Assembly: GCA_040754495.1 (NCBI GenBank)
Contig: JBFMCO010000056.1
Coordinates: 1 to 60,122 of the forward strand
From: Candidatus Micrarchaeota archaeon
GTDB taxonomy: Archaea; Micrarchaeota; Micrarchaeia; Anstonellales; Bilamarchaeaceae
Length of the DNA: 60,122 bases
Direction of reading: 5' to 3'
Numbering within the stretch: position 1 is the first letter of the stretch; each line of letters opens with the position of its first letter. The notes under the pieces were generated by a model. It saw only the letters and a list, made by a program, of their open reading frames with translations, had not been told where the DNA came from and did not search any database. Both the position numbers and the translations under genes were made by a program. Positions 13,947-60,000 of the stretch are shown here, piece by piece.

Positions 13947-14293
13947 TGGGAAGGCGCCTCAGGCCGGCCGCGCGTAGGGATTCACCGGAGCGCACCCCTT
14001 TCACGCGGTTGGGATTCCTCACGCTCGTCCCTGATTCCGCGGACGGGATAACCAGGACTGTCGAGCTATACGCATGCCTTCTCCAGCACGATTCGCCCGC
14101 AGTCTCGCAGGCCCGGTTCCGCTCCCAGGGACACCTGGACCAGATAGATATATGCACCTCCATCTACTGCCTGTCCCCGGAAGCCGCAGGGAAACTCGTG
14201 AAAGAGCTCAGGATAATCGCCGAGATGAGCATTCACCGCGATGTGCGCATAGCCGCCCTGATGAAGCTCGTGGAGCTCGAGCTCTCGAAATGA
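13943..14293 (+). CDS. Hypothetical protein
   Basis: 116-aa ORF overlapping the upstream stop (ATGA). Confidence 0.55.
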   Translation: MMGRRLRPAARRDSPERTPFTRLGFLTLVPDSADGITRTVELYACLLQHDSPAVSQARFRSQGHLDQIDICTSIYCLSPEAAGKLVKELRIIAEMSIHRDVRIAALMKLVELELSK

Positions 14294-40356: not shown

Positions 40357-40530
40357 AAGACCGCCTCCGGTCCCCCCGCCTTTGTATGCGAGGGCATTAA
40401 TAAAAACCCAATCGGTCAAATCAGATTCCAGCATCCAGTTTCCTGTATCCGGAAGGGACGGCAAAACTGGAAACCTGCGACGGGAAACCTATTGGTGGAA
40501 TCTCAGAAACATCAGGGTTTCCTGAGTCTT

Positions 40531-40687
40531 GCCCCTGTAGCGCAGTCCGCCTTTTGGGAAAAGGCGGTCCAAAACCGCCTGATGAAAACCCTTCGGGTTT
40601 TGGGTCGTTTCAAACAAAAGCCGGGCGTCACGGTAGCGCGCGTCCTTGGTAAGGACGAGGTCCGGGGTTCAAATCCCCGCGGGGGCT
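40531..40687 (+). tRNA. tRNA-Thr(GGU) with an 85-nt intron at 15/16
   Basis: Acceptor GCCCCTG/CGGGGGC, U73; spliced D-loop AG|CGGTA; anticodon arm CGTCC-TTGGTAA-GGACG; T arm CGGGG-TTCAAAT-CCCCG. Intron 40546..40630. Confidence 0.88.
40546..40630 (+). other. Archaeal tRNA intron with relaxed HBh' motif
   Basis: H = GCGC/GCGT; bulges AG|T and CA|C; h' = CCG.CTTTTG/CAAAAG.CGG; no outer h helix. Confidence 0.8.
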
Positions 40688-40727
40688 TACATCTGCACTT
40701 CTTCTGTTATCCGCTTTTTGCGCAGAT

Positions 40728-40764
40728 GGTTTCCGGTTTCGGGTTCAGGGTTTCCGGTCCCGGG
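40728..40764. repeat. Short tandem array of degenerate TTCCGGT/ACCGGAA heptamers
   Basis: TTCCGGT TTCGGGT TCAGGGT TTCCGGT. Similar arrays at 21325..21352, 30993..31022, 32964..32992, 40466..40489, 56393..56418, 56692..56725 and 56760..56780. Confidence 0.7.
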
Positions 40765-40838
40765 CTTATAAACCGCAAACTTCGATTTTTGATAACAATC
40801 TTTATAATCATATTCTATCATTACTATACACGATACTC

Positions 40839-41978
40839 ATGGTCAAGGTAGAGGCAGACGGGGGGCTTAGGGTAAGGGAGGCCCTCGGCGGCATCATTCG
40901 CTCGGCACAGCTCAAGCCGATGCTGGACCGGTTCAAGGACAGGTCCGTGGAGCTTGGCATCGGCGTCACTATTGCCGATTCAGCAGTCAAATTCGTCCAG
41001 GGCGCCGGGGTTTGCGAGGAGGATGCGTCTGCCCTCGTTGCCGGCAGCCTCCTGAGGGGCCTGAGCTTCGAAGTCGGTTCAGACCTCGACCTCATCCCGA
41101 GGGTCGGCGAGCTTGTAAAGGCGCTCCAGGCAGAAAAAACCGGCCTCCTCACGAGCACGGAATTCCTGCTCGAATTCGCCCAGATGCTCCAGCATTCGAA
41201 GAACGCCGACGACCTGCATGCTCTCGCCACCATCTGCGTCGAGGTCTATTCTGCCAACAGGCCAGGCTCCCGCCCGGCCAGCCTCTCCGAAATCTCGAAC
41301 CCGGACCTGATTGTCGAGATGACGCGCGATTATGTCGAGCTTTTCCTTACGGTCAGGGCCGGCCAGGCTGCCAGGGAAATGCCCGCTCCGGCGGGCGTGG
41401 AGCAGCCGGCCGGAGCGCCTGCCCCGGAAGAAAGGAGAGCGCCCTCGTCGCTCCCTCCGGGAACGTTCATGGCGGAGGTCCAGGCAATGCAGGACCTGGT
41501 GAGCCAGACCTATGGAAACGGCAGGGGGAATGGGCCCAGCGTAAGCGTGGAAATCCTCGCGTGGTCCACCGGGGAGGTGGCGCTCAGGGACATATCCATA
41601 AATGACGTCTCGGTCTCAGCCAAGTTCGCAATCAGCCATGGGAGGCTCCCCGTGTTTTTCCTCGACATCGCCCCGTCTTATCTCAGGACGCAGGAGCTGA
41701 AGTGCTTCACGTCCGGCCCGGTCGAGGAGAGAATCGCCGCTGAATCCCAGGTCTCGGCGCTCCTGGGAATGGTGGAGCGCCTCACCCCGCACGGAACAAT
41801 CTACACAGAAAAAGAGGTCCGGGCCGTCCTGGAGCGCTTCGGCCTCGACAGCCTCATGGCCCTTGTGCATCCCTCGAACTTCGTTCTCGAGACGCTGTCA
41901 CCTGCTCCATCGATAATCGTTCCTGGGAACAACGCAGTGGAAGAGCTGGCAAGGATAGCCGGGCGGAAAACGGGCTGA
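40839..41978 (-). CDS. Hypothetical protein
   Basis: 379-aa ORF with genome-typical codon bias; Pro/Ala linker separating two regions. Confidence 0.75.
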
Positions 41979-43337
41979 TTATAAGTCGAGGGCGTTCCCG
42001 TAGGCCATCGCTGCCTTCCTGATGGCGTACATCATCGAGAAGTGCCTCGCCCTGAGCGCCTCAATGTTCCAGCTCTCTATGCCTTCCGCGTCCGCGATGA
42101 GGCCGTAAGCGTCTGCTATGTTGCGGAGGGCCCTTTCGCCCATGCTATTGACCGGGCCCCCGTGGAGCCTCAGCGTGTCGGAAAGTATCGCCTTCTCATC
42201 CTCCCCGAGCGTGCCGTCTTCCTTCCTGTACTTCAGGTAATGCGCCCGCACCATCTTGTGGCCGGGGTGGTCGAGGCATTCGAAGGCGGACCAGAACTGC
42301 TCCCAGTCCTCCTCGCTGAGCACGCCCTCGCGCCGTATGTCCATGAAGCGCCCGAATATCGCCGAGCTTCTCATCTCGCTGAATGCCGCCCGGTATTCCT
42401 CCGGGACCATCTCCGCTTCTATGTTCGCGGTGCAGACGAGGTGATAAATCGCCTTTGCGACCGCGCGCACGCGCAGGTCCGCGATATTTTCCAGCGTCTT
42501 CGTGGCCGGCATCTCCAGGGCGGCCTGCTCGAGAACCTGCGCGTCGAACGCCTTCCCGTACTGCAGGTGCATGTCGAATATCTTCCTGTCTATGAATTCG
42601 AGAAGCGCCTTGCCTTTCAGCTCGGACGGGGCCCAGATGGTGCTCTCCATCCCGTCGACCATGTAGGTGAACTGCGAATGATTGTTGCCCTCGGCCGGCC
42701 CGTCGTACATGACCTTCCGGCTCTCGAGCTGCTCCTCAGCGACCTGGAGCGGGGCCGCAGGCGGGCGGGAATTGCGCCTCTTCCTGAGCGCCTCCTCCCT
42801 GCGCGTACTGGCGGTCGTCCCGATGGAGACGATGCGGGCAATCTTCTCCACTTCGCCTACCGGGTCCCCGCTTTCCATTATCGCGTCTTTGAGGGGAACC
42901 GTGTAAGTGTCAGCGCCTATCGCGACCTTGAACTGGACTCTGGAGTCGTTCCTTCTCTCCCCGACTATCTCGCCCTCCACGCCTATCCTGCGGAGGGCAG
43001 CATAAAGGGCTTCCTTGATGTCCGCCGGCGCCTGCTCGTTTTCAGGCGCCTTCGCGGAGGCCTGCGGGGCGCTTGCCCTCCTGGCGAGTATGTCCCTGGC
43101 AATACCCACGACGCGCGCCTCGAAGGCGTTCTTGTCCCTGAGGCCCTGGACGATGAACATCATGGACTCTTTTATGATAAGGCTCTGCCATATCTGCTCT
43201 TCCACCGGATTCCTGCCGGGTTCCCTGTCCTGCACCATGAGGCCGCTCACAAGGGTCGCCCTGCCGAGGAAGCGTTTCTTTTCTGCCGGCGCGGGTTCCG
43301 CTCCGGGTCCTGCTAGCTTTCTCTCCGGGGGGCGCAT
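41979..43337 (-). CDS. Hypothetical protein, possible degenerate HD-like C-terminal domain
   Basis: 452 aa; C-terminal LDHPGH...LRLHGG...RNIADAY. Confidence 0.7.
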   Translation of the reverse strand: MRPPERKLAGPGAEPAPAEKKRFLGRATLVSGLMVQDREPGRNPVEEQIWQSLIIKESMMFIVQGLRDKNAFEARVVGIARDILARRASAPQASAKAPENEQAPADIKEALYAALRRIGVEGEIVGERRNDSRVQFKVAIGADTYTVPLKDAIMESGDPVGEVEKIARIVSIGTTASTRREEALRKRRNSRPPAAPLQVAEEQLESRKVMYDGPAEGNNHSQFTYMVDGMESTIWAPSELKGKALLEFIDRKIFDMHLQYGKAFDAQVLEQAALEMPATKTLENIADLRVRAVAKAIYHLVCTANIEAEMVPEEYRAAFSEMRSSAIFGRFMDIRREGVLSEEDWEQFWSAFECLDHPGHKMVRAHYLKYRKEDGTLGEDEKAILSDTLRLHGGPVNSMGERALRNIADAYGLIADAEGIESWNIEALRARHFSMMYAIRKAAMAYGNALDL

Positions 43338-43695
43338 CTTAACACATCATGGAGGATAATCCCTGTATATATGTGGCATTTCTTCTATTTAAATGTTGCG
43401 CAACGCCACCCCTGACAGCGCTTTCGGCATCCCAACATGAATCAGCCGTTTTCCACCGAATGGAAGTTGCCGTCCCGGTCGCGGGTGAACCGGTGCGACA
43501 CATTTATCCTGCAGACAAACTGGCCGCTCTCGTTCTGGGCGAGCGGCGACCAAAGACCCTTGTATATATGGCAATGCGGGCACGCCGGCATGGAAACACC
43601 TGTTTTTTTACTGGTCGGACCAGATTAGCGCTGGTAGATTTATAAAGATTTACGGCATCCGCCGATGAAAAGCTATTTTAACCTGCTCGGACGAT

Positions 43696-44391
43696 GTGAT
43701 GCCCATGGACGGCCATCTGGGTTTACGCGAACTGCTGCTTGTGGGCCTGCTGATAGTCGGGCTGGCGGCAGCTGTTTTCCTGCTCTTCGGAGGCAGGCCA
43801 GCCACCCCTGCCGCGCCTGAGCCTCCGCCTGAGGAGCCGGCCGCCGCGCCTGAAGATGAGGCTCCTCTTGCCGCAGCTCCTGAGGAGCCATCCCAGGCCG
43901 AACCGGAAGCGGAGGCAAACGTGACCAACAAGAGCGTGGGGCAGCTCCTCGACGAAGGAGTGCTGAGGGCAGATTCGCGCTTCTACCAGGAAGTTGAAAC
44001 CGGCAAATACGACATAAAGGCATACCAGTGGGCCCTGGGCTCGTTCGGCATGCCGCCCGACAGCGTCCCGCTCAAGGAAAACGACCTGAGGGCATCCTCA
44101 GTCCGCTTCGATGGCCGTTACGAGGACAGCCTGAGGGGGTTCGGATTCAAGACATACCAGCCCCAGAACCTCAGCGGCCCGCCGAGAATATACGGGACCG
44201 CGGTGTTCCTGTCTTCGCCCGGCCCGCTCCCGTCCGGTAAGTTCGACGTGGAGTTCGACCCGCACCCCGAAGGTACGCAGATAATAGAAGACTGCACGGT
44301 CCTGACCTCGGAGGAGCTCCAGACCGGGACGGGCGCGGCATTCACGGTTTACGATATAAGCTGCAAGATAATGTACGGTGCGTTCCCATGA
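43696..44391 (+). CDS. Membrane-anchored exported protein
   Basis: N-terminal TM, P/E/A linker, domain starting KSVGQLL that is shared with the next gene. Confidence 0.75.
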   Translation: MMPMDGHLGLRELLLVGLLIVGLAAAVFLLFGGRPATPAAPEPPPEEPAAAPEDEAPLAAAPEEPSQAEPEAEANVTNKSVGQLLDEGVLRADSRFYQEVETGKYDIKAYQWALGSFGMPPDSVPLKENDLRASSVRFDGRYEDSLRGFGFKTYQPQNLSGPPRIYGTAVFLSSPGPLPSGKFDVEFDPHPEGTQIIEDCTVLTSEELQTGTGAAFTVYDISCKIMYGAFP

Positions 44392-45152
44392 GACTGCTGA
44401 TGCTTTTGTTAGCCGGAGCCCTGCTGTTCGCAGGTTGCGCAACTCCACCTGCCGGAAACCAGACCGGGCCGGTCCAGACTCCGCCAGCCCAGCCCAACGC
44501 AACGCCGCCGGCGATGGCATGCTCGGAATACTGCCTCACACTGCCGCACATCCAGTGCGTCGGGGAATGGAAGATATCCGGCACCTACCCCAACTGCGTA
44601 TGCGAGTACGAATGCACCACCGCCAACGAAACAGGAAACGGGGAACCGGAAACCAACGCGACACCGCCGGCAGCGCCGCCGGAAGAGCCCCTCGCCACGC
44701 CAACCACCAAGTCCGTATCCCAGCTCCTCTATGACGCCATGGCGAGGACCGAGAGCGACTTCTACCGCGAGAACGACGGCTCTTTCATCCAGAAGAACTA
44801 CACCTGGGTCAGGAAGACCCTCCAGCCCGGAGGCCTGGCTTACGACGCGCCAGCTGATGACGTGAAATTCGACGGGAAGGCAATCGCCTCCATCGAGGCG
44901 TTCGGCTATACAGTATTCGAAGACCAGGCAGATGATGTCAAAAAGGCATACGGCGCCGCAATCTTCAAGGCGAAAACCACGCCTCTCGACTCATATACCG
45001 GCTCCGACGCGTTCGACATCAATTACTTCTACCAGCAGGAGAACGGCCTCCTCAAGGACTGCTGGGCCTACACCCGGGACTACAACGTGAACCAGGCAGA
45101 TGACTGGTTAGTGACGTATGTCTTCAGGTGCGAGAAAGTGCTTGACAAATGA
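44388..45152 (+). CDS. Lipoprotein with a six-Cys module, paralog of the upstream gene
   Basis: LLFAGC; CSEYCLTLPHIQCVGEWKISGTYPNCVCEYEC; KSVSQLL domain. Confidence 0.8.
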   Translation: MRLLMLLLAGALLFAGCATPPAGNQTGPVQTPPAQPNATPPAMACSEYCLTLPHIQCVGEWKISGTYPNCVCEYECTTANETGNGEPETNATPPAAPPEEPLATPTTKSVSQLLYDAMARTESDFYRENDGSFIQKNYTWVRKTLQPGGLAYDAPADDVKFDGKAIASIEAFGYTVFEDQADDVKKAYGAAIFKAKTTPLDSYTGSDAFDINYFYQQENGLLKDCWAYTRDYNVNQADDWLVTYVFRCEKVLDK

Positions 45153-45203
45153 GGCAGGGCAATATATAACAGAAAGAAAGGATTTCCGCTCCGTCCATCC
45201 CTT

Positions 45204-45356
45204 TCAGAGGGATCTCAGGAAGCCGCTCGAATCCAGCTTGAACTTGTGAGCCGGGTTTGATGTGCACCTGAACTCGTTCTCCCCCTTGGAGAGCGTAGAG
45301 TTCATCCCGTGGCTCATGCTGCACTCGGGGCATCCCATCTGATATTCGTTCGTCAT
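45204..45356 (-). CDS. Small Zn-ribbon-like protein (50 aa, below the ORF-track cutoff)
   Basis: MTNEYQMGCPECSMSHGMNSTLSKGENEFRCTSNPAHKFKLDSSGFLRSL; GGAGT RBS; TTTATAAA at 45424..45431. Confidence 0.7.
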   Translation of the reverse strand: MTNEYQMGCPECSMSHGMNSTLSKGENEFRCTSNPAHKFKLDSSGFLRSL

Positions 45357-45509
45357 GGGAATCTACTCCGCCGATTAGCTATCGGCATACTTTACTGGTC
45401 GTGGTTCGCTAACTCGGATAAAATTTATAAAGGTATGTTCCTCCGGCGTCAAACCGAAACTCTTTCGGCCGTCCTAATCCTTAATAACTTTACCATTTAT
45501 ATCAGCACC

Positions 45510-48500
45510 ATGCGACTCCCGGCTGTTATAGCGCTGATGATGCTTGCGGGCCTTTCGTTTTCCCTTGCCAACGTTACCGGCTGCATGAATATCAGCTCGT
45601 CCGACACCTACGAATTGACGGGCGCTATTGCCGGAGCTAACATATCCGGATACCCGAATATCGTCGGAAACGTATGCCTGAGGATATCTGTCTCGAACGT
45701 GGCTCTCGACTGCAAAGGATTCACGCTCACCGGCGCCGGAGCCCCTACTGCCGGCATCGCGGCTGAAGAGTCGTCCGCCGCCCCCATAAGCAATGTGACG
45801 ATTAAAAACTGCGTCATCACCAACTACACCCAGGGCATTATACTCGAGAACACCCACTCCTCCCTCGTGTACAACAACACCGCCTTCAACAACACCCACA
45901 ACGGCTTCTTCATAACCTTCAACAGCAGCGGGAACAACATCAGCTCGAACGTCGCGTTCAACAACACTTTCGCCGGGTCGGACAGCGATGCCGCCTTCAT
46001 AGTATTCGGTTCCGACAGCAACGTCCTCTCGAGCAACAGGGCATACGACAACTCTATGCACGGATTCTTCCTGCTCTCTGCAAGCGGCAACTCCCTCGTC
46101 TCCAACAACGCGACCAACCACCCGCTCTCCGGATTCAGGGTTTCCGCGAGCGGGAACTCGCTCGCATCCAACATAGCGCTCGACGACAACATCGGCTTCA
46201 ACGTCTCGGGCTCCAGCAACAATTTCACTGGCAACACCGCGAACAACAGCGGCCAGCAGGGATTCCTTCTTGAGGGCGGCTCAGGCAACCGCCTCACCGG
46301 CAACACCGCAGCCCACAGCTCGGACCCCGGCTTCCTCGCGCGGCTGGGTGCGACCGGCGACACGTTCCTCTCGAATTTCGCATACAACAACTCCAACACC
46401 GGATTTTTCATGTCCTCCGGGAGCCACAACCTTAGCGGCAACCTCGCGGACCTCAACAATGGCGCCGGGTTCTTCGTAAACTCCGGCTCCAACACGCTCT
46501 CAGCGAACAACGCCACGAGGTCCATCGGGCCCGGCTTCTACGCCTTCAGCGGCGCCACCAGCACTGATTTCTCGGACAACTACGCGTCCGACAACGACGA
46601 CGAGGGCTTTCTCATCCAGAGCGACAGCAACACCTTCTTCGGTGACCGCGCCGAGAACAACACCTACGGGTTCCTGCTGGATTCCGGAGCGGACTTCAAC
46701 GCGCTTACTGACGTCACCGGCTCGTTCAACTCTGTAGACGGCCTGCTCGTCGATTCGGATGGCAATTCCGTGGACCCGTCGTTCTTCTGCAACAACACGG
46801 GCAACGGCATCACGATAACCGGCGCTTCGGGCAACTCGGTCTCCGATTCCGTCGCCTGCAACAACACGAACGACGGCCTCTACGCGGAGGATTCCACGGG
46901 CCTCACCCTCGCCGGCAACTCATTCAGCGGCAACACCCAGAACGGGGTCGAGTTCGACAACGTCAATTCGAGTTCCGTCTCTTCGAGCAACGCCACGGCC
47001 AACGGGAACAACGGCTTCACCGCCGCGGACGGCGTTTCCCTCTCGTTTTCCGGGAACTCGGCGAGCGGCAGCGGCGGGAGCGGATTCATCATCAACAACG
47101 GGACCGGAGTCAACCTGACGGCAAATGCCGGCTCGGGCAATTCTATCAACGGCTTCCTGGTCTCAGGCGGTACGGGCATCCGTCTTTCCGGCAACAACGC
47201 GTCAGGAAACAGCTTCAGCGGGGTCATCCTCACCGGCTCGGCCAACAACACGCTTAGCGGCAATAACGCATCGTCCAATTCGGTTTCGGGCTTCAGGCTC
47301 CTGTCCACCCCAAGCGCCAACCTTTCCACGAACAGCGCTTCAGGCAACGGCGCGGATGGATTCTTCCTGTCAGGCTCGTTGGGCGGCGTTTTCCTCTCCA
47401 ACAACGCCTCAGGCAACACGGGCGACGGCTTCGACTTCGGCACGAGCTCTTCCTACCTCATGACGTACGACACAGCCTCCGGAAACGGCGGCTACGGCAT
47501 GCTCTTCACGTCCAGCCCGGGCGGCATCCCGCAAAACGCAACCATAACCTCGAACGGACTGGATGGCATGGCGTTCTTCTCGAGCCCGGGCGGCATCCCT
47601 CAATACAACAACGTCTCGGGCAACTCCGGCAACGGCATCACGATGGTCTCAAGCGGGGGCAAGATACCTATCGGCAACATCATCGGCGGAAACTCCGGGG
47701 ACGGCATATACTCCGATGACAGCGGGGGCAGCATATTCGACTCCAACGTCATCTTCTCGAACGGAGGCAACGGCCTTGCGGCGTACAACGATTCCGGAGG
47801 CATATACGGCCCTAACGTCATTTTCGGAAACGGCCTGAACGGAATCCTCGTCTCCAATATTAACTCAACCATCTTCTACCTCAGCAACATCTCGAACAAC
47901 AGCCTCGACGGCATTGCGGTCACCGGCGCCTCGGGAGGCAATATCATAAGCGACAACATCGTTGACGGCAACGGTGCGGACGGTATCTCCGTCGACGCAA
48001 GCCCTGCCAACACCCTGCAGAACAACACGCTCTTTGGCAACGCCGCGAACGGCCTTTACCTCTTCGATTCAAACGGAACGGCGCTTGTCTCGAACCACTA
48101 TTACAACAACACGCTTGACCTAGCGGTGGAATCCGCCTTCGGCAACCCGTTCAATTACTCGATGGCCGGGAATGTCTTCGACAACCCCTCCGGCGGATTT
48201 TCGAACTACACGAACCTCTCCATCACGGACCAGGTGGAGCTGGACGGCTTCCACAGCATAAGCTGGGATAACCAGCCTGCGCCCCCTCCTCTCCCCATCA
48301 ACCAGGTCAGCTTCAGGGGCAAGTTCGCCAACATAACGCTGTGGTTCGGCTCGACTTCGATAGACAACATCACATGGCACTGGCTTGACTCGGAGACGGC
48401 GGGCTACAATGAAGCCACGTTCAGGCTCTGGGAATTCGATGCGGGCGGCTGGGCCGTAGTGAACGGAACGCCGGACATCACGGCTAACACGCTGTCCCTT

Positions 48501-49646
48501 GCGAACGTCAGCACCTTCAGCGATTTCGCCATCCTGCAGAACAACCCCCAGCCTTCCCCCGATGATGGGGGCGCTCCGTCCGGTGAGGCGCTCTCAGTAG
48601 CTCTCGCGCCGTCCTGCAACGGATTCATCGTGAGGGTGAAAGACGGCGGCGACCCTGTCGCGGACGCGTTCGTTGAAGGAACCGACGCCACCCACGGCAC
48701 GGAGTTCAGCCCCAGATACACCAACGAGTCCGGCGAGGCGTACTTCGGCACGTGCGACATAGATGTTTCCATGGAAGTGTCTTCTGGCGGCCTCAGCGGG
48801 GACGCATCAGGATTCGCCGCGTGCGGAGCCTGCGCTGAATGCGCATCCGACCTGGACTGTCTCGATACCGAGCAGTGCGTCGCACAGCAGTGCGTGCCCC
48901 TCTATTGCGAGGGCGGCCAGGCAGTGGACCACTCCTGCGAGCCTTATGAATGCACGTCGGACAGCGACTGCCCGCAGGGTCTGCAGTGCGTAGGCCACGA
49001 GTGCGTCGAGGCCTTCGAATGCGATGAAAACTCCGACTGCCTGCCTGCGCAGTTCTGCGAAATAGCCCCCGGCCAGGCGGGCGGAAGCTGCAAGGACGTG
49101 CAGTGCGCCTGCGGCACTATAATGGACCATGCCTGCGTCAGCTTCGAGTGCTGCGCGGACAGCGACTGCGATGCGGGGGAGCGGTGCATCTCAAATGCGT
49201 GCGTGCAGGCGGACGTAACCTGCCCATCGACCGGCCTTGTCGGCGACGAGAAGACCTGCGAGGCGAAGGAGGACGGCGAGGTTTGCACTGACTGCGACTT
49301 CGTAATCACCGACCCCTCAGGCAAAAACTTCACGGGCAAGACCGATGAGAACGGCAATTTCGGCTTACCCCTGCAGTTCGAAGGCACATACCGCGTGGCC
49401 CTGCTCAGGAACGGCACGGTGGTGAAGGTCATAGAGGTCAAGGCATTCCCGAAAGCCGAGAGCGGCGGCGGGGAGGAGAAGCCCCCTGCGCTGATTAGCG
49501 AGGAGATGGTCCAGGCGGGCCTCATCATCCTTCTAGTCGCGCTTGCCATCGGCGGCATACTCTACTGGAGGAAAGGGCAGGGAAAGAAGCCTGCCGCACC
49601 CCAGAAGGCCCCCGAGGCCAAGCCTCCGGCCAAGGCCGGGAAGTAA
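45510..49646 (+). CDS. Giant parallel beta-helix (NosD/CASH-like) surface protein A
   Basis: Signal peptide, many N/S-rich beta-helix rungs, Cys-rich repeats, C-terminal TM and Lys-rich tail. Confidence 0.88.
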   Translation: MRLPAVIALMMLAGLSFSLANVTGCMNISSSDTYELTGAIAGANISGYPNIVGNVCLRISVSNVALDCKGFTLTGAGAPTAGIAAEESSAAPISNVTIKNCVITNYTQGIILENTHSSLVYNNTAFNNTHNGFFITFNSSGNNISSNVAFNNTFAGSDSDAAFIVFGSDSNVLSSNRAYDNSMHGFFLLSASGNSLVSNNATNHPLSGFRVSASGNSLASNIALDDNIGFNVSGSSNNFTGNTANNSGQQGFLLEGGSGNRLTGNTAAHSSDPGFLARLGATGDTFLSNFAYNNSNTGFFMSSGSHNLSGNLADLNNGAGFFVNSGSNTLSANNATRSIGPGFYAFSGATSTDFSDNYASDNDDEGFLIQSDSNTFFGDRAENNTYGFLLDSGADFNALTDVTGSFNSVDGLLVDSDGNSVDPSFFCNNTGNGITITGASGNSVSDSVACNNTNDGLYAEDSTGLTLAGNSFSGNTQNGVEFDNVNSSSVSSSNATANGNNGFTAADGVSLSFSGNSASGSGGSGFIINNGTGVNLTANAGSGNSINGFLVSGGTGIRLSGNNASGNSFSGVILTGSANNTLSGNNASSNSVSGFRLLSTPSANLSTNSASGNGADGFFLSGSLGGVFLSNNASGNTGDGFDFGTSSSYLMTYDTASGNGGYGMLFTSSPGGIPQNATITSNGLDGMAFFSSPGGIPQYNNVSGNSGNGITMVSSGGKIPIGNIIGGNSGDGIYSDDSGGSIFDSNVIFSNGGNGLAAYNDSGGIYGPNVIFGNGLNGILVSNINSTIFYLSNISNNSLDGIAVTGASGGNIISDNIVDGNGADGISVDASPANTLQNNTLFGNAANGLYLFDSNGTALVSNHYYNNTLDLAVESAFGNPFNYSMAGNVFDNPSGGFSNYTNLSITDQVELDGFHSISWDNQPAPPPLPINQVSFRGKFANITLWFGSTSIDNITWHWLDSETAGYNEATFRLWEFDAGGWAVVNGTPDITANTLSLANVSTFSDFAILQNNPQPSPDDGGAPSGEALSVALAPSCNGFIVRVKDGGDPVADAFVEGTDATHGTEFSPRYTNESGEAYFGTCDIDVSMEVSSGGLSGDASGFAACGACAECASDLDCLDTEQCVAQQCVPLYCEGGQAVDHSCEPYECTSDSDCPQGLQCVGHECVEAFECDENSDCLPAQFCEIAPGQAGGSCKDVQCACGTIMDHACVSFECCADSDCDAGERCISNACVQADVTCPSTGLVGDEKTCEAKEDGEVCTDCDFVITDPSGKNFTGKTDENGNFGLPLQFEGTYRVALLRNGTVVKVIEVKAFPKAESGGGEEKPPALISEEMVQAGLIILLVALAIGGILYWRKGQGKKPAAPQKAPEAKPPAKAGK

Positions 49647-49726
49647 TTTTTTTATTTATGTTAACAGGCAGCGCAGAGTGGCTGCCACTGCGGTATGATT
49701 TTAAAGCCTAACGCAGATTCCATCCC

Positions 49727-52700
49727 ATGCGGCCTTTTGCATTTTTGGCGATACTGCTGGTTATCTCAGGATTTGCTTTTTCGGTGGACATTTCAGCCTG
49801 CACCAACATCACGGGCTCCAACTCGATCTACAACCTGACAACCAGCGTCAGCGGAGCCCCTTTCCCGTATTACTTCGGCTCTTACAATACCTGCATGCTG
49901 ATAAGCGCATCGAACATAACCCTGGACTGCGGCGGGAACAGCATAACAACGACCGATGACAGCAGTATCGTGATAATCAACGCGTCAAACGTCACAGTTC
50001 GGAACTGCATCCTCAACAACGGCACTGGCATAGAGCTCCTCAGTGCCGGCATCGGTGTGGACGGCCCCCAAAACAGCCAGATAACCAACAACCAGATAAA
50101 CCCCAGCTTCGCAGGCATCAGCGGCGTCCTTTCTTTCGGCGCCGCAGGAAACAACACCATCAGCGGCAACAACATCACCGGCGGGACTTACGGCGTATGG
50201 GAGCCAGGTGAAAATTCCACCATCTCCAATAACCGCTTCCTTAACCAGGGCTCAATCGGGCTGGTGGATGGCGGCTTCAACAATACCGCGACGAACAACT
50301 ACATAAACGGGAGCGGCGGGTTCGGCATGATGCTTGACGGTTCCAACCTCAACGTCATGTCGAACGTGGTAGGGAACAGCACCGATGTAGGAATTTACGT
50401 GAATGCTTACAACTCTACGATCTCCGACAACAACGTCTCCTCCAGCGGCGGACACGGCGTACAGATGGGCGACGGCGGCTCCGACGACGAGGCCAATTTC
50501 GTCGTGCTTTCGGGCAACCGGATATCCTCGAGTGGCGGAAACGGAATCCATGTCGAGGGCAGCACCGATAATCTGATACAGGGCAATATCATATCAGGCG
50601 CGAGCGTGGGCATCTGGCTGCAGAACGGCTTCGGCGAGGGCTTCCACCCTGCCGTGGACAACAGCTTCAGCAACAACGTAGTATCCGGGAGCAGCAGCAA
50701 CGGCGTCTACCTTACCGGCGTCTCTTCGAACAACTTCACGGAGAACAACGTGTCTTTCAACGGGGATGACGGCCTTTTCGTAGACTCGTCGTCCTCAATC
50801 TTCATTGACCCCTCGTATTTCTGCAACAACACGGGCAATGGGCTCACAATCAATGCCTCGACCAACGTGACCGTGACGGACTCCGTCTTCTGCAACAACA
50901 CCGGCAGCGGCCTTCTCGTATTCCTCTCCAATAACAGCCTGATATCAAACAACACGGCGCTGAACCACTCGAGCATCTCCAATGCATTCGACATACAGAA
51001 CAGCACCGGAATAAACCTGAGCGGCAATGTCGCGGATGATGCGAACGTCGGCTTCAATCTCTTATTCAGCCCCTCAAACATACTTGCGAACAACACGGCC
51101 CTCGACACAAGCACCGGCTTCCTTCTCAGTTTCAGCGGAAACAACGTGCTGTCGGGAAATAACGCGTCTAACGGGGGACTGGGCTACCGGAACTCGTTCA
51201 GCTCCGACAATACGACCTTCCTGAACAACTATGCCCAAAACAACACCCTTGCCGGTTTCTTCGTGGCCGAAGGCTCGGATAATGTCACGCTCCGCGCCAA
51301 CACCGCCCTGAACAACAGCCTCCAGGGCTTCGAAGTCACAATCGGCTCCGACAACAACACCCTGGAATCGAACCTGGCCTCCAGGAACGGCGGCACAGGC
51401 TTCATTATAATAACAAACACCGGAAACAACCTGACCAACAACACGGCGTTCAATAACACGGGGGCGGGCTTCGAGTGCTCATCCGCAAATAATTCCCTCT
51501 TAATCAACAACACGGCCACCTTCAACGGAGGAAGGGGGCTGCTGCTAAGCTCGTGCCACAATAACCTGATAAGCGACGGCATCTTCAACAACAACTCCAA
51601 TACCGGGGTCCAGGCGTCCTTCAGCACGAACAACACCTTCCGGAGGAACGTCGTCGCGAACAACACGTTCGGCGGCTTCACGATAGCCCAGGGCTCGAAC
51701 GACAGCGTAATCGCCAACAACACCGTTTTCCTCACTACCGACGCATACTCATTCAGCCTCAGCTCGAGCAGGAACCTGGTGGCGAACAACACCGCATTCA
51801 ACAACTCAGGAACCGGCTTCCGCGCGGTCTCGGCAGCCAACAACAATACGTTCCTGAACAACACGGCCTACCGCAACGCGATAGGTTTCGACATGACCTC
51901 TGCAAACGGGAACAACCTCACGGGCAACACCGCGCACTCGAACACGCAGGCAGGAGTAACGATAGGCGGCGCGACCACGAACGTCTCCACGCACCACATC
52001 TACAACAACACGGTCGGCCTTGCCCTCAGCGGGAATCTCTTCAGCGTCAGCCTGAGGGAGGTAATATTCGACAACCCCGCCGGCAATTTCGCTGACTTCA
52101 CGAACGTCAGCCTGAACGACACCATCCCGGTATCCGGCGGCTCATACAACATGACTTGGAGCGCCCTCCCGGCCGCGCTGCCCGGTTTCACCGGCTCGTT
52201 TGCGAACAAGCACCTGAATATCACCAACACCTCGTCAAACGCTTCCATAGACAGCATCACCTGGCACTGGACGAACACCGAGTCAGCAAGCTACCTCGAA
52301 GAACGCTTCGAGGTCTGGAAATACAACGCCTCGGGCTGGTCCCAGGTTTCTGCAACCCTTGACCCCGGGACGAATACCCTGAGCGTGGCCAGCCTCGGGC
52401 CGTTCAGCGTTTTCTCGATACTGCAGAACGACGGCTGCCCCGCGCCAATAGCGTCGCCGGGCACATACCTCCTGAATGGCAGCGTGGTCGGCGCCTCGAA
52501 CGATGCCTCCCCGCTCTCCAACTTCAGCTGCATCAAGATAGCGTCTTCGGACGTGGCCCTGGACTGCCAGGGCTTCAGCGTTACCGACAACGGCACCGCG
52601 GGAACGACCTACGGCATTCTGCTGAACAATTCCGCTACGAACGTAACCGTAAGGAACTGCGTGGTCTCCGGCTACAGCGTCGGCATGAGGACCATCTCGT

Positions 52701-55700
52701 CCGACAACGGGCTGTTCGTCAACAACACCGCGTTCAACAACTCGCTCTACGGATTCAACCTGGACAGCTCATCGGATTCGAACCTGCTTGCCAACAACAC
52801 CGCATACAACAACACGGCCGGCTTCTTCCTCGTGGGCACGGCAAACGGCAACAACCTCACGAACAACACCGCCCACAGCAACGTCAACTACGGAATAATC
52901 CTCCAGTCCGGCGCGCTGCTCAACCGCCTGGTTTCCAACCTTGCCTACAACAACTCGTTTGCAGGATTCGGCGTCCTAATAGGCTCCAACACGAATACGC
53001 TCTTTAACAACATCGGCCATTCGAACGGGCAATTCGGGTTCTATCTGGATACGGTCAACTCGACCAACATGACCAGCAACACAGCGTACAACAACTCCAA
53101 CTCCGGCATCGAGCTCGTATCGAGCCCGGCCAACCTCCTTGCCGACAACAACGCCTCGAACAACAGCTTCGACGGGCTGGTCCTGGTAACCTCCAGCAAC
53201 AACGTGGTCGACCCGTCGTACTTCTGCGGCAACGGGGATGACGGCATCTACGTTTCGTCCTCCAGCGGCTCGCTCATCACTGACAACGTCGCCTGCAACA
53301 ACGGCGGCAACGGGATAGAGGTATCCGCCTCGTCCAGCGTCACGCTGGGAAATAACAGCGTCTTCGGCAACTCCGACCACGGTATATTCCTGTCGTCGGT
53401 GACCTTCAGCAGCCTTGCCGGAAACGGCGTCTACAACAACAGCGGGGCTTTCGTCTCAGGCATATACCTTGGCTCCTCGTCCAACAACACGCTCTCAGGC
53501 AACACCGTGTACAACAACTCCGTCTATGGCATCCGGCTTTTCGCGAGCTCGGACAACAACCTCACCAACAACTCTGCATACGACAACTTCAACGGGATAT
53601 TCGCTGCGACCTCGCCATTCAACAACCGCTTCGTGAATAACACTGCGCACGACAACCCCAACGACGGCTTCACGGTATCGGGCGGCGGCGGGAACTTCTT
53701 CAGCGGCAACACGGCCTACCTCAACTCAAGGGGCTTCAATCTCGATACCGGCCCGGACAACACCCTGAGCGGCAACGCTGCATACAACAACTCCAACGGG
53801 TTCAGCCTGGCGGCAAGCGACAACAACTCGCTGGGCAGCAACCTCGCCTACAACAACACCAACACCGGATTCAGGCTGGAGGTGGGCTCGGACGGCAACA
53901 CCCTGTCCAACAACACGGCCACGGAAAACCTTTACGGTTTCAGGGTCGAATCCGGCTCGGACGACAACGACCTCACGAGCAACAATGGCTCCGGCAACAT
54001 ATTATCCGGCCTTGTCATAACCGACTCGAACGGCAACACGGTCGACCCGTCGTTCTTCTGCAACAACGGAGGAAGCGGCATCGAAGTGGACAACTCGAAC
54101 GATACCATTGTCGAAGATTCGACCGCCTGCCTCAACGGCGATGACGGCGTCCAGGTCACAGGCTCCACGGATATCACGCTGGACAACGTGAGCGCCTACA
54201 ACAACACGAACGGATTCAGCTTCCTCTTCGGAGGCTCCACGAGCGGAAACGCCTTCTCCAACAATGCCTACAACAACAGCGCCTCGGGCTTCTCCGTATC
54301 AGTGGAAAACATGCTGGGCTTCAACTTCACCGACAATAACGCAGCCGAGAACGGCGCGAACGGCTTCACGGTCAACGGGGCCGCAAGCGACCTCGTGCTC
54401 TTCCAGGACAACAACGCGACCGATAACGCCGACATGGGCTTCGACGTGGAGAACCTCGACCTCGTCAGCGTCATACACAACAATGCAACCGGGAACGGCG
54501 GCATAGCGTTCTACCTGTTCAGCACCCAGTCCTACCTGCTCCCTGTCCACAACAACACCGCGACCGGCAACGGCGGCGACGGCTTCGTCTTCGAAAGCGC
54601 CGAGGCCAATGTCTCGGGTAACCTGGCCGATTCCAACGGCGGCTCGGGCTTCATCTTCGACGACATGTTCATGGGCGGAACGTCCATCCTGAACAACACC
54701 GCCTCAGGAAACGCGGGCAACGGCTTCGATGCAAAGTCCTTCATCGGAACCTCCGGCCTTCTCGTGAACAACACGGCCCGCAGCAACGGGCAGGCCGGCC
54801 TGTACGCAGCGTCGCTCCTTGCCCCGACCATGGCGGTGGGCGACCACTACTACAACAACAGCCCCGACTTCCTGGCAAACGGCACCGGAATCAACGTGAC
54901 GCTCTCAGGGGTGGTCTTCGACAGCCCGGCCGGCCTCTACCCGGACTACACCAACCTGTCCCTCAACGACACCGTGGCATCGGCATACTCCATAGACTGG
55001 ACGAACAACGCCAGCAGCCTGCCTCTTCCGGGGAACCATATCTCATTCGCGCAGAAGTTCGTCAATATAACGAACCTCTCCGGAAACGTTTCCATAGATT
55101 CAATAGTATGGCACTGGCTCGATTCCGAGACCGGAGGATACAACGAGGCGCAGTTCCAGCTGTGGAAGTTCAACCCCATAAGCCTCTGGGCATTCCAGAA
55201 CCAGAGCCCTGACACGGCCACGAACACCCTGTCTCTCAGCAACCTCAGCAGCTTCAGCGACTTTGCAATCCTGCAGAACGCGCCGCAGCAGCCGCAGCCG
55301 GAGGACGGGCAGCCTTCCGAGGAAGGCCTCGATGTGGGGATAAAGCCATCCTGCAACGGCTTCATAATAACCGTAAAAGACAGCGGCGACGCGGTAGAGG
55401 ACGCATTCGTTGAAATCAACGACGAGACGCACGGCACGGAGCTCAGCCCGAGATACACCAACTCCTCTGGCCAGGCATTCGTAGACATCTGCGACATAGA
55501 AGTCAGCATAGACGCCACGAAGTCCGGCAAGGACGGCTCAAAATCAGGCTTCGCGGCCTGCGGCATCTGCCCGGAGTGCGCGACAGACGAGGACTGCCTC
55601 GGAAGCGAGCAGTGCACCAACCAGCAGTGCGTGCCAATCTACTGCCCTGACGGCGAGGCAGTCGACCATGCCTGCGAGCTTTACGAATGCACATCCGACA

Positions 55701-56362
55701 ACGACTGCCCCGAAGGGCAGCAGTGCATCGGCCACGAGTGCAAGACGGTCTTCGAGTGCGATGGCAACGAGGACTGCCTGCCTGCGCAGTTCTGCGAAAT
55801 ACCTATCGGGCAGCCGGGCGGAAGCTGCAAGGACGTGCAGTGCGCCTGCGGCACTATAATGGACCATGCCTGCATCAGCTTCGAGTGCTGCTCAGACAGC
55901 GACTGCCCGGCCGGGGGGCGGTGCATCTCCAACGCATGCGTGCAGGCGGACGTCACCTGCCCGTCTACAGGCGTAGTGGGCGACGAGAAGACCTGCGAGG
56001 CGAAGGAGGACGGACAGGCTTGCGAGGACTGCGATTATATCGTCACCGACCCCTCAGGCAAGAACTTCACCGGGCGTACGGACGAGAACGGCAACTTTGA
56101 CCTTCCGCTGCGGTTCGAGGGCACCTACAGGGTGGCCCTCCTCAGGAACGGCACGGTGGTAAAGGTCATCGAGGTCAAGGCCTTCCCGAAGGGTGAAGGG
56201 GAAGGGGATGGAAAACCGTCCGCCGCAGGATTTGATGCGGCCACCGCGATCTTCATAATCGTCCTTGCCCTCCTTGTGGTGGCGGGGCTGCTGTACTGGA
56301 GGAAAAGGGGGAAGAAGGCTGAGCCGAAAGCGGCCAAGGCCGATAAGCCCCCGGCAAAGTAG
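49727..56362 (+). CDS. Giant parallel beta-helix surface protein B (2211 aa)
   Basis: Same architecture as A, with the beta-helix plus SIDSI.WHW module present twice; C-terminal TM. Confidence 0.9.
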   Translation: MRPFAFLAILLVISGFAFSVDISACTNITGSNSIYNLTTSVSGAPFPYYFGSYNTCMLISASNITLDCGGNSITTTDDSSIVIINASNVTVRNCILNNGTGIELLSAGIGVDGPQNSQITNNQINPSFAGISGVLSFGAAGNNTISGNNITGGTYGVWEPGENSTISNNRFLNQGSIGLVDGGFNNTATNNYINGSGGFGMMLDGSNLNVMSNVVGNSTDVGIYVNAYNSTISDNNVSSSGGHGVQMGDGGSDDEANFVVLSGNRISSSGGNGIHVEGSTDNLIQGNIISGASVGIWLQNGFGEGFHPAVDNSFSNNVVSGSSSNGVYLTGVSSNNFTENNVSFNGDDGLFVDSSSSIFIDPSYFCNNTGNGLTINASTNVTVTDSVFCNNTGSGLLVFLSNNSLISNNTALNHSSISNAFDIQNSTGINLSGNVADDANVGFNLLFSPSNILANNTALDTSTGFLLSFSGNNVLSGNNASNGGLGYRNSFSSDNTTFLNNYAQNNTLAGFFVAEGSDNVTLRANTALNNSLQGFEVTIGSDNNTLESNLASRNGGTGFIIITNTGNNLTNNTAFNNTGAGFECSSANNSLLINNTATFNGGRGLLLSSCHNNLISDGIFNNNSNTGVQASFSTNNTFRRNVVANNTFGGFTIAQGSNDSVIANNTVFLTTDAYSFSLSSSRNLVANNTAFNNSGTGFRAVSAANNNTFLNNTAYRNAIGFDMTSANGNNLTGNTAHSNTQAGVTIGGATTNVSTHHIYNNTVGLALSGNLFSVSLREVIFDNPAGNFADFTNVSLNDTIPVSGGSYNMTWSALPAALPGFTGSFANKHLNITNTSSNASIDSITWHWTNTESASYLEERFEVWKYNASGWSQVSATLDPGTNTLSVASLGPFSVFSILQNDGCPAPIASPGTYLLNGSVVGASNDASPLSNFSCIKIASSDVALDCQGFSVTDNGTAGTTYGILLNNSATNVTVRNCVVSGYSVGMRTISSDNGLFVNNTAFNNSLYGFNLDSSSDSNLLANNTAYNNTAGFFLVGTANGNNLTNNTAHSNVNYGIILQSGALLNRLVSNLAYNNSFAGFGVLIGSNTNTLFNNIGHSNGQFGFYLDTVNSTNMTSNTAYNNSNSGIELVSSPANLLADNNASNNSFDGLVLVTSSNNVVDPSYFCGNGDDGIYVSSSSGSLITDNVACNNGGNGIEVSASSSVTLGNNSVFGNSDHGIFLSSVTFSSLAGNGVYNNSGAFVSGIYLGSSSNNTLSGNTVYNNSVYGIRLFASSDNNLTNNSAYDNFNGIFAATSPFNNRFVNNTAHDNPNDGFTVSGGGGNFFSGNTAYLNSRGFNLDTGPDNTLSGNAAYNNSNGFSLAASDNNSLGSNLAYNNTNTGFRLEVGSDGNTLSNNTATENLYGFRVESGSDDNDLTSNNGSGNILSGLVITDSNGNTVDPSFFCNNGGSGIEVDNSNDTIVEDSTACLNGDDGVQVTGSTDITLDNVSAYNNTNGFSFLFGGSTSGNAFSNNAYNNSASGFSVSVENMLGFNFTDNNAAENGANGFTVNGAASDLVLFQDNNATDNADMGFDVENLDLVSVIHNNATGNGGIAFYLFSTQSYLLPVHNNTATGNGGDGFVFESAEANVSGNLADSNGGSGFIFDDMFMGGTSILNNTASGNAGNGFDAKSFIGTSGLLVNNTARSNGQAGLYAASLLAPTMAVGDHYYNNSPDFLANGTGINVTLSGVVFDSPAGLYPDYTNLSLNDTVASAYSIDWTNNASSLPLPGNHISFAQKFVNITNLSGNVSIDSIVWHWLDSETGGYNEAQFQLWKFNPISLWAFQNQSPDTATNTLSLSNLSSFSDFAILQNAPQQPQPEDGQPSEEGLDVGIKPSCNGFIITVKDSGDAVEDAFVEINDETHGTELSPRYTNSSGQAFVDICDIEVSIDATKSGKDGSKSGFAACGICPECATDEDCLGSEQCTNQQCVPIYCPDGEAVDHACELYECTSDNDCPEGQQCIGHECKTVFECDGNEDCLPAQFCEIPIGQPGGSCKDVQCACGTIMDHACISFECCSDSDCPAGGRCISNACVQADVTCPSTGVVGDEKTCEAKEDGQACEDCDYIVTDPSGKNFTGRTDENGNFDLPLRFEGTYRVALLRNGTVVKVIEVKAFPKGEGEGDGKPSAAGFDAATAIFIIVLALLVVAGLLYWRKRGKKAEPKAAKADKPPAK

Positions 56363-56490
56363 GGTTGCAGAAGGGTTCCGGCGCCTCTCAGGACCGGAAA
56401 CAGGGAACCGGAAACCCCTCAGCCGCTGCTGAGTGGAGAAGAATAATAAAAAATTCGCCCCAACCGCGATTTGAACGCGGACAGCAACCT

Positions 56491-56674
56491 TTCCGCCTTT
56501 TGGAAAAAGGCGGCCCAAAACCTGTTGTCGATTTTGCCTTTGCGGGCAAAATAACTTTCAAAAAACCCGAAAGGGTTTTTCAATCGCAGGTTTTTTGGGC
56601 GCTTTTTTCCCAAAACGACAGGGAGCGAAGCTCCCTGTGCCCCATTGTTCGATTCGAACAATAGGGAAGCGCAA
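56491..56674 (-). other. 184-nt canonical-position tRNA intron made of tandem hairpins
   Basis: H = CTGC/GCGG; 3' bulge AA|A closed by the anticodon stem; h' is weak. Confidence 0.78.
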
Positions 56675-56691
56675 CCGCAGGGTTGCGTCCT

Positions 56692-56725
56692 TTCTGTTTC
56701 CGGCACCCGGTTTCGGGTTTCGGAT
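56692..56725 (-). other. 34-nt D-loop tRNA intron made of heptamers; exact junction uncertain by about 1 nt
   Basis: CTG/CAG and TCCG/CGGA helices with an AA|A bulge; removal gives D-loop AACCTGGATA. Confidence 0.7.
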
Positions 56726-56915
56726 ATCCAGGTTAGACTATTGGGGCAGCAATAATGTCTCCCGTCTCCGGTTTCCGGTCAAGGGAGCGGATTTTTGCCC
56801 GATGGACAGATTTAAATAGGTATAGCTTTTAAATTATTCTCTGCATTTTCTCGGTGGTGTTTGGCCTTCCCGAGGGCAGGCCGGCTCATCACTTTCTCAA
56901 AAGTCAGGTGGTATA

Positions 56916-59731: not shown

Positions 59732-59839
59732 TCGGTGGTCGGCTTCGATCACTTACCCTTATTTTCAAAGTTCCTGCGGAGTAAAACCTAAGGAAGTTTG
59801 ATAGAAAATTTACCCGGGGTTCTCCGGAGGAAATTTTCT

Positions 59840-59923
59840 GCAGGGGTGGCAGAGCGGTCAAATGCGCCAGCTTGAGGGGCTGGTGGGTTAGTCCCTTCGA
59901 GAGTTCAAATCTCTTCCCCTGCA
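59840..59923 (+). tRNA. tRNA-Leu(GAG), intronless
   Basis: GCAGGGG/CCCCTGC, A73; CCAGC-TTGAGGG-GCTGG; long variable arm; GAGAG-TTCAAAT-CTCTT. Confidence 0.92.
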
Positions 59924-60000
59924 TACTACTTCAAGCTCAGGTCTTCCCGATTTGGGCATAATTCTGCCCCAAGGGGCACGAACCCTAAAAAGTTATCTTA

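Follow-up and report, generated by a model that had tools for sequence, protein, structure and literature searches.

A palindromic repeat that forms the ends of tRNA introns in a genus-level group of Micrarchaeota, with evidence for its movement as DNA

Among the short palindromes of bacteria, the REP (repetitive extragenic palindromic) sequences, bacterial interspersed mosaic elements (BIMEs) and REPINs, which go together with RAYT transposases, are often found as inverted doublets able to fold as one long hairpin, and their copy number varies greatly between relatives; the Rickettsia palindromic elements (RPEs) insert in frame into protein-coding genes. Among archaeal tRNA introns, the transposed introns of the Thermoproteales (Fujishima et al. 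2010, via PMC4090602 and PMC3239211) spread, according to the passages of these papers that deal with them, by an unknown mechanism, and a 2026 preprint on Asgard archaea describes the route of tRNA intron arrival as still open (10.64898/2026.10.13.758758). The tRNAs of Candidatus Micrarchaeum acidiphilum ARMAN-2 are reported, in the relevant passages of PMC3239211, to be interrupted by several introns each, which lie in the D, anticodon and T loops and have relaxed bulge-helix-bulge (BHB) motifs, and its epsilon-2 enzyme (structure 4fz2, PMC3488258) to cleave both strict and relaxed motifs in vitro. In this work we analyse a stretch of 60,122 nucleotides (the window) from a Candidatus Micrarchaeota archaeon (assembly GCA_040754495.1, contig JBFMCO010000056.1, positions 1 to 60,122 of the forward strand), in which one 31-mer, made of a hairpin and a tail, lies at an end of an intron in two different tRNA genes, tRNA-Thr(GGU) and tRNA-Arg(GCG), in opposite orientations relative to them.

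We consider it probable that one genus-level group of Micrarchaeota has a family of protein-spliced (BHB) introns of which this 31-mer is the terminal module, and that the module is also mobile as DNA. The match between 40546-40576 and 56492-56522, reported at 29 of 31 positions in a preliminary description of the window, was confirmed: the pattern is found exactly at these two places only, both on the + strand, with 2 of the 31 positions differing between the copies, and 100 dinucleotide-preserving shuffles of the window contain no match. The 21-nt hairpin is palindromic, so that orientation can be read only from its loop (GGG/GGA) and from the 9-nt tail; the orientation call is sound for both copies because a covariance model of the repeat (R1, built from 36 copies) scores both on the + strand, with 52.3 bits for the Thr copy and 54.3 bits for the Arg copy. 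A second hairpin common to both introns, of the form AAAACCC..GGGTTTT, is present as first reported, at 40585-40601 and 56561-56580.

The tRNA-Thr(GGU) gene occupies 40531-40687 of the + strand (exons 40531-40545 and 40631-40687), as indicated by an Rfam match on its 3' part and by the junction in the intronless orthologues of five congeners, which read GCGCAG-CGGTAGCGC across the site; its fold retains the acceptor, anticodon and T arms. The 85-nt D-loop intron (between positions 15 and 16; 40546-40630, + strand) is of the single-module type, with boundaries taken from these orthologues and in agreement with a relaxed BHB. It opens with the 5'-terminal module (40546-40586, + strand), formed by a U, the hairpin CCGCC-UUUU-GGG-AAAA-GGCGG (40547-40567), the tail UCCAAAACC and then GCCUGAUGA. 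There follow the inner hairpin H2 (AAAACCC-UUC-GGGUUUU, 40585-40601, + strand), of a type seen in many introns of the family, and a distal copy of the 3' arm of the module hairpin (AAAAGCCGG, 40616-40624, + strand), recognised in the fold.

The tRNA-Arg(GCG) gene lies on the - strand at 56456-56747 (exons 56747-56725, 56690-56675 and 56490-56456), its mature form being given by the fully intronless orthologues of congeners G022 and G054. Comparison of orthologues, of which the intronless ones read CTGCG(A/G)-AGGTTG across the site, places in its anticodon loop (between positions 37 and 38) a 184-nt intron of the long, two-module type (56491-56674, - strand). The second 31-mer copy belongs to the 3'-terminal module of this intron (56491-56532), which is forward on the + strand and hence inverted relative to the tRNA. 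A third module copy, which the preliminary description overlooked because a 51-nt insertion splits its hairpin, forms the 5' end of the same intron (56590-56674, - strand; weak R1 match at 56579-56619) and reads UU-GCGCUU, then the insertion, then UUUUGGGAAAAAAGCGC and the tail CCAAAAAAC; the uninterrupted equivalent of this layout is found in the orthologues of G011 and G021. The nested insertion (56616-56666, - strand) consists, by sequence and fold, of two hairpins. Between the end modules lie the inner hairpins H2 (56561-56580) and H3 (56531-56552), both on the - strand, with H2 first in tRNA orientation. In both genes the joined exons equal intronless orthologues exactly (Thr in G019, G046, G008, G054 and G052; Arg in G022 and G054), and sequence and orthologues together bear out the earlier placement of the element, from the first base of the Thr intron and, inverted, up to the penultimate base of the Arg intron.

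The opposite orientation of the two copies follows a rule that holds throughout the genome from which the window comes (1.63 Mb in 72 contigs, 80% complete; hereafter the source genome). Classified by eye from their flanks, as were the copies in other assemblies, all 18 modules at intron 5' ends are forward and all 17 at 3' ends are inverted relative to their tRNA (35/35), none of the 35 has its tail against an exon, and the many two-ended introns run exon, hairpin, tail at the one end and inverted tail, hairpin, exon at the other. Among 185,000 species genomes, 96 stretches match exactly the 29-mer that has the CCGCC stem, nearly all of them in assemblies of Micrarchaeota, Candidatus Bilamarchaeum or Bilamarchaeaceae, and 80 of these were fetched and read: 46 are forward at a 5' end and 26 inverted at a 3' end (72/72, in about 35 Micrarchaeota assemblies), one lies directly behind a tRNA 3' end, five are in unclear context, two are in a bacterial bin, and none violates the rule. 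Since the hairpin always abuts the splice site with the tail pointing inward, copies at opposite intron ends are reverse complements of each other. Of the two window copies, that of tRNA-Thr belongs to a 5' end and that of tRNA-Arg to a 3' end; their apparent inversion is architecture and therefore carries no information on how the element moves, so that the suggestion of DNA-level movement which the preliminary description drew from it fails.

A search by fuzzy matching, a structure-aware regular expression and R1 finds about 40 module copies in the source genome at E below 1e-4 (R1). The module begins, as a rule, with a T (one or two U in the RNA); after this come a hairpin of 9 bp, N5-TTTT-NNN-AAAA-N5', the tail (C)CAAAAC and some ten more conserved bases, roughly YGGYUGUU. 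The four T-A (U-A) pairs of the hairpin are invariant and the five outer pairs variable: at least nine different outer stems occur that are still complementary, with 99.4% of cells paired and all five pairs changed on both sides. Because the first catalogue had required a stem, the repeat was also searched for without that requirement, and 24 of 24 matches have perfect stems, where pentamers paired at random would give 0.8%. At least 20 different tRNA genes have modules and whole introns in common. Across the sampled species of the genus the number of R1 copies per genome ranges from 0 to 55, with the repeat present in 23 of 24 sampled genomes of the genus versus 4 of 16 from other families of the order. 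At 27 module loci Rfam gave no family match beyond tRNA, RNase P RNA and sub-threshold noise, viral contigs contain no exact match to the module 3' arm plus tail, and a full-text literature search on tRNA introns combined with Micrarchaeota, palindromic or repeat element returned no description of the module.

The tRNA sites that hold these introns turn over among congeners. For Thr 15/16, compared in 12 genomes including the source genome, five have no intron (G019, G046, G008, G054, G052), one (G010) has an unrelated intron of a heptad type, and six have a module-bearing intron with, in all, four different stems (the source genome, G050 with two modules, G044, G022, G023 with a decayed one, and G012). 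The Arg 37/38 site is empty in G022 and G054, holds a short intron (13-37 nt) without module in G008, G050, G007, G016 and G042, a minimal two-module intron in G014, long two-module introns like that of the window in G011 and G021 and decayed single modules in G041 and G046; in G020 the hairpin is split by a nested insertion of the same kind as in the window. Additionally, the tRNA-Arg(GCG) of several species has an extra T-loop intron that starts with a module. A search for empty sites at the strain level, through an identical neighbouring protein, has nothing on record. Both window introns are thus present, absent or rebuilt among congeners, and are not ancient and static.

These observations leave practically no credence for the view that there is no element at all, the likeness being due to chance, to generic hairpins or to remnants of ancient static introns. 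It is true that most of the match is a simple GC-clamped T4/A4 palindrome and that two exact 29-mer matches with unrelated flanks (L154, L183) occur in a bacterial bin, uncultured Ruminococcaceae UMGS1591, which are probably a terminator-like hairpin or misbinned DNA. Against this view stand the empty shuffles, the presence, absence and rebuilding at orthologous sites, the roughly 40 genomic copies that have in common a non-palindromic tail and the bases following it, and the hundreds of copies in the genus. The preliminary description had allowed for there being only two copies, alike as any hairpins may be, or for introns long fixed in place; neither is what the genome and its relatives hold.

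The module hairpins are themselves the target of a second small element of 46-58 nt, which splits them at the junction of variable stem and T-run (or of A-run and stem) in either orientation. Two hairpins standing side by side make it up, and the first, whose inner stems are compensated, has the form CCCTAT(T/G)G...CATGGG(G). The element occurs at least six times in the source genome, namely in the window (the insertion at 56616-56666) and in five other module hairpins (its sites outside the window include C28 at about 24650-24845, C59 at about 11940-11998, C50 at about 13470-13530 and C4 at 13975-14030), and once in G020 (L076). BLAST gave no high-identity copies of this two-hairpin insertion.

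The module is not confined to introns. About three quarters of the approximately 46 copies in the source genome are inside tRNA genes, and 11 are non-intronic: three directly behind tRNA 3' ends, one behind the 3' end of the RNase P RNA, one between rpl23 and rpl2, one in pyrF, one after a stop codon on contig C16 and four in other spacers. In 22 aligned congeners the rpl23/rpl2 spacer measures 8-22 nt in most and 62 nt in G018; in the source genome and G041 about 40 extra bases form a complete module that starts at the stop codon, and G006 has a truncated copy. The GAAAC stem, the tail and the following bases of this copy equal the 5' module of a tRNA-Ile intron, and the stem therefore came with the element; for the same reason we rejected the possibility that the stem derives from the target as an inverted target duplication. 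In pyrF (C14:17192-17219, L004), the gene for orotidine-5'-phosphate decarboxylase, hairpin and tail stand in frame, add 21 nt and read RLLGKGAPKRG. This module is present in the source genome and G018 and not in 23 other aligned congeners, the length of the stretch varying in other species too. A spliced mRNA intron was considered, as the excess of 21 nt equals the length of the hairpin; no BHB is seen and the tail is clearly in the retained part, so that translation through the module appears more likely than splicing. The module is, then, also a dispersed palindromic DNA repeat of about 40 nt that has entered non-intron DNA. The preliminary description had proposed an element like REPs or like miniature inverted-repeat transposable elements (MITEs), and of this proposal the real repeat family stands, extending beyond tRNA introns and inserted in an operon spacer and a coding sequence, while a system of the REP/RAYT type is not shown. 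Support goes to the broader idea that a palindromic repeat makes up the ends of tRNA introns and is, besides, mobile as DNA.

Several copies sit beside, or in, stable-RNA genes in notable arrangements. The modules directly behind mature tRNA 3' ends (C14:44064-44095, C22:18773-18804 and C23:10332-10359) have T-runs of up to six where a terminator is expected, and the one on C23 comes after a second copy of the T-arm and acceptor end that belong to the neighbouring tRNA. Both the source genome (C61:120-340, L025) and G022 have two copies of the final 17 nt of the RNase P RNA (GACTATGCCCCTCACTT), separated by about 130 nt, and the first copy is directly followed by a module; relatives (L252, L253, L259, L262) have after this 3' end a large-loop variant, GAAA(A/C)TTT-[~19 nt]-AAA(T/G)TTTC-ATCAAAC, and four other contigs repeat an 88-nt unit that starts at this RNase P RNA end. 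At C68:10740-10768 (L027) the 3' part of a tRNA follows an inverted module, no 5' part is visible within 200 nt and a lipoprotein-like gene starts there; the tRNA may be split, may have a very long intron or may be a mere fragment.

The way in which the module would serve splicing can be drawn in some detail for the Thr intron. In the minimum-free-energy fold the 5' arm of the hairpin pairs with the distal 3'-arm copy at 40616-40624 and not with its local partner. A relaxed BHB drawn by hand pairs D-stem positions G10-C13 with GCGU and has a 5' bulge A14 G15↓U16 and a 3' bulge C A↓C (arrows mark the cuts), that is, a 4-bp helix, two 3-nt bulges and a 9-bp outer helix, with no lower helix. In this drawing each cut comes behind base two of its 3-nt bulge, and the product has the D-loop AGCGGUA of intronless G019. 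Equal geometry is found with other stems in the orthologues of G044 (UGCGC/GCGCA; UGCGCUUUUU / AGAAAGCGCA, then GUGC, AA↓C) and G022 (GAAAC/GGUUC; GAAACUUUU / AAAAGGUUC, then GCGU, AA↓C), and therefore the long-range helix between 5' arm and distal copy covaries as well. By eye, a distal arm is also present in other single-module introns of the source genome (Cys GCA, Asp GUC, Ile UAU, Phe and a D-loop intron on C14). In the Arg intron, the last four bases of the 3' module hairpin, GCGG, can pair with CUGC of the anticodon loop, leaving an AA↓A bulge, as read from the sequence; the free-energy fold of this intron is a long rod (z = -9.6) without BHB. Free-energy folds favour long-range pairing in both window introns, and the compensated local stems together with the differing end stems favour local hairpins; both structures may form.

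In the mechanism that we propose, the exon-proximal arm of the hairpin would supply the helix beside the splice-site bulge, and the flanking U or AA the bases of the bulge. In single-module introns such as that of tRNA-Thr the distal 3'-arm copy would pair with the 5' arm and close the BHB, and in two-module introns the two tails would pair with each other. The cuts at the bulges would be made by an encoded endonuclease of broad specificity: the source genome has a 391-aa open reading frame (ORF) with two tRNA_int_endo matches and a match at E = 1e-132 to the ARMAN-2 epsilon-2 structure 4fz2 over residues 4-391, a predicted three-unit epsilon-2 splicing endonuclease able to handle relaxed substrates.

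A number of results weigh against the module being a splicing device that also moves as DNA. For the Arg intron, in which the CUGC/GCGG helix and the 3' bulge alone are clear, no canonical BHB or upper helix can be drawn, and many two-module introns have two unlike stems, so that the closing helix is not a simple duplex of 5' arm and 3' arm and local hairpins must flank the bulges. Splicing, hairpin formation and the role of the tail are, indeed, inferred from sequence, folds and covariation. As to movement, neither the rpl23/rpl2 nor the pyrF insertion shows a target-site duplication, and each non-intron insertion is common to two or three related species and therefore represents one event. 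No Y1 transposase (PF01797), linked to the module as the preliminary description had envisaged or elsewhere, and no reverse transcriptase (PF00078) was found in the 80%-complete source genome; Y1 is absent also from the five other most module-rich genomes (G011, G023, G015, G021 and G006, with 33-55 copies). Four TnpB-like genes were found, and the 300 nt downstream of each ORF are free of modules; the gene on C66 has a module-bearing tRNA some 600 nt away, to which nothing connects it. The two best-spaced convergent pairs of modules (on G006:C30 and G023:C4, 1.3 and 2.7 kb apart) enclose genes for serine hydroxymethyltransferase, a methyltransferase and small housekeeping genes, with no transposase, and a limited search found no autonomous element with module ends. 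Finally, the common orientation of whole long introns, detailed below, is easier to reconcile with oriented copying or with selection than with whole introns being transposed in an orientation-blind way.

The negative searches bear most directly on the idea of a REP/REPIN-like or IS200/IS605-derived miniature element, whose hairpins would be moved as single-stranded DNA, in either orientation, by a Y1 enzyme (RAYT/TnpA). Short palindromes with compensated stems, the frequent inverted doublets resembling REPINs and BIMEs, the conserved flanking T and tail and the Y1 genes present in 9 of 40 genomes of the genus are all in its favour. Nevertheless, we hold this origin to be very unlikely: the genomes with Y1 are not the module-rich ones, Y1 occurrence having no relation to module copy number; the copies are mostly inside stable-RNA genes and not extragenic; the strict hairpin-outward rule is unlike orientation-blind insertion; and no module is found at the ends of TnpB-type genes.

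Another explanation makes the whole intron the mobile unit, as proposed for the Thermoproteales, and has it copied in fixed orientation between tRNA genes, either by recombination or by an RNA intermediate (an excised or circular intron re-ligated into a pre-tRNA and copied to DNA); the modules would be splicing signals, and the non-intron copies debris or co-opted sequences, for instance terminators. The long introns give it substance, with H2 (AAAACCC..GGGTTTT) standing before H3 (ATTTTGCC..GGCAAAAT) in tRNA orientation in 11 of 12 cases from the source genome and the fetched loci (eight by an automatic procedure and three by eye; for the twelfth, L203, no orientation could be assigned), and with those of Arg(GCG), Ile(GAU), Thr(CGU) and Pro(UGG) aligning far better forward than reversed (scores of 126-160 vs 83-98). 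By the preliminary description's own logic, such a common orientation would point to an oriented process, or to selection, at the level of whole introns. Four short two-module introns in different tRNAs have a central hairpin in common, about 90% of the copies in other assemblies are intronic, and the modules behind tRNA and RNase P RNA 3' ends put a T-run at the expected terminator position. We still regard this explanation as unlikely, since no reverse transcriptase was found and since what entered the rpl23/rpl2 spacer and pyrF was in each case a solo module of about 40 nt and not an intron. Furthermore, module stems differ between orthologous introns at one site. The end stems of a single intron often differ, and the swapped end modules of one short intron, on C58, make it align slightly better in reverse; modules therefore reassort independently of the intron core.

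The reading that we prefer, of a terminal module of BHB introns that is also mobile as DNA, suggests that the module persists mainly where it is spliced out or otherwise harmless, and that it builds or rebuilds intron ends and does not merely shelter in introns. A bolder form of it, possible but doubtful, is that the module of about 40 nt is a self-contained, portable splice-site cassette spreading as DNA without a dedicated transposase, one or two copies of which, once in a tRNA gene, create a spliceable intron by bringing the bulge bases and the helix for the endonuclease. If true, the gain of tRNA introns in archaea would have a direct mechanism open to observation, and the second hairpin element that splits module hairpins would be the same process acting recursively. 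In any case, the family offers a defined sequence unit by which archaeal tRNA intron gain can be followed, and with orthologous tRNA sites caught in empty, short-intron, one-module and two-module states such gain becomes testable. There is also a practical side, as standard tRNA finders miss the tRNA genes that modules interrupt: in default mode, with no intron search, ARAGORN found one of the three tRNA genes of the window, the intronless tRNA-Leu at 59839-59924, and Rfam matched this gene and the 3' part of a tRNA at 40624-40679.

Some further features of the window belong to the same two tRNA genes. The Arg gene has a second intron, in the D-loop (34 nt, 56691-56724, - strand), made of CCGAAAC/GGAAAC heptads and without module, across the site of which orthologues read GTCTAACCTGGATA-GGAC; runs of GGAAAC/CCGAAAC heptads also fill spacers near both tRNA genes (e.g. 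40460-40480, 56400-56420 and 56760-56780). In introns of the Thr type, UGAUGA comes directly after the tail (window 40576-40590; C14:25210-25225; C14:46166-46230), and the copy at C14:46138 adds CUGA further along, a likeness to box C/D or kink-turn motifs.

Among described systems, ARMAN-2 is of the same phylum, and the source genome encodes a full-length homologue of its epsilon-2 endonuclease; the ARMAN-2 paper treats intron positions and enzyme specificity, with example introns of 13-25 nt, and the passages of it that were searched mention no shared hairpin module or repeat family (PMC3239211). For a MITE one would look for terminal inverted repeats with a target-site duplication and for an autonomous relative with the same ends; here, inverted ends occur in two-module introns, their stems often differ, the rpl23/rpl2 and pyrF insertions have no duplication, and the limited search gave no such relative. 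The module resembles RPEs in that a palindrome is tolerated in frame in an ORF (pyrF) and also occurs in RNA genes; unlike them, it is much shorter, was seen in one coding case only and has its main habitat in tRNA introns. With REPs and REPINs it has in common the short palindrome, the inverted doublets and the variable copy number, and it differs from them in the lack of RAYT/Y1 tracking and of a GTAG/CGTC tag, in lying mostly in RNA genes as intron ends and in an orientation set by the splice site. Like the transposed introns of the Thermoproteales, the introns described here are similar in non-orthologous tRNAs, are patchy among close relatives and go with an endonuclease of broad specificity; in contrast to those, they have a defined end-module of hairpin plus tail, with compensated stems and a strict outward orientation, which is also found in non-intron places (a spacer, an ORF and positions behind the 3' ends of stable RNAs), and both the lineage (DPANN Micrarchaeota) and the type of enzyme (epsilon-2) differ. 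The closest described system in behaviour is thus that of the transposed tRNA introns of the Thermoproteales, and the closest in form that of the bacterial REP doublets (REPINs).

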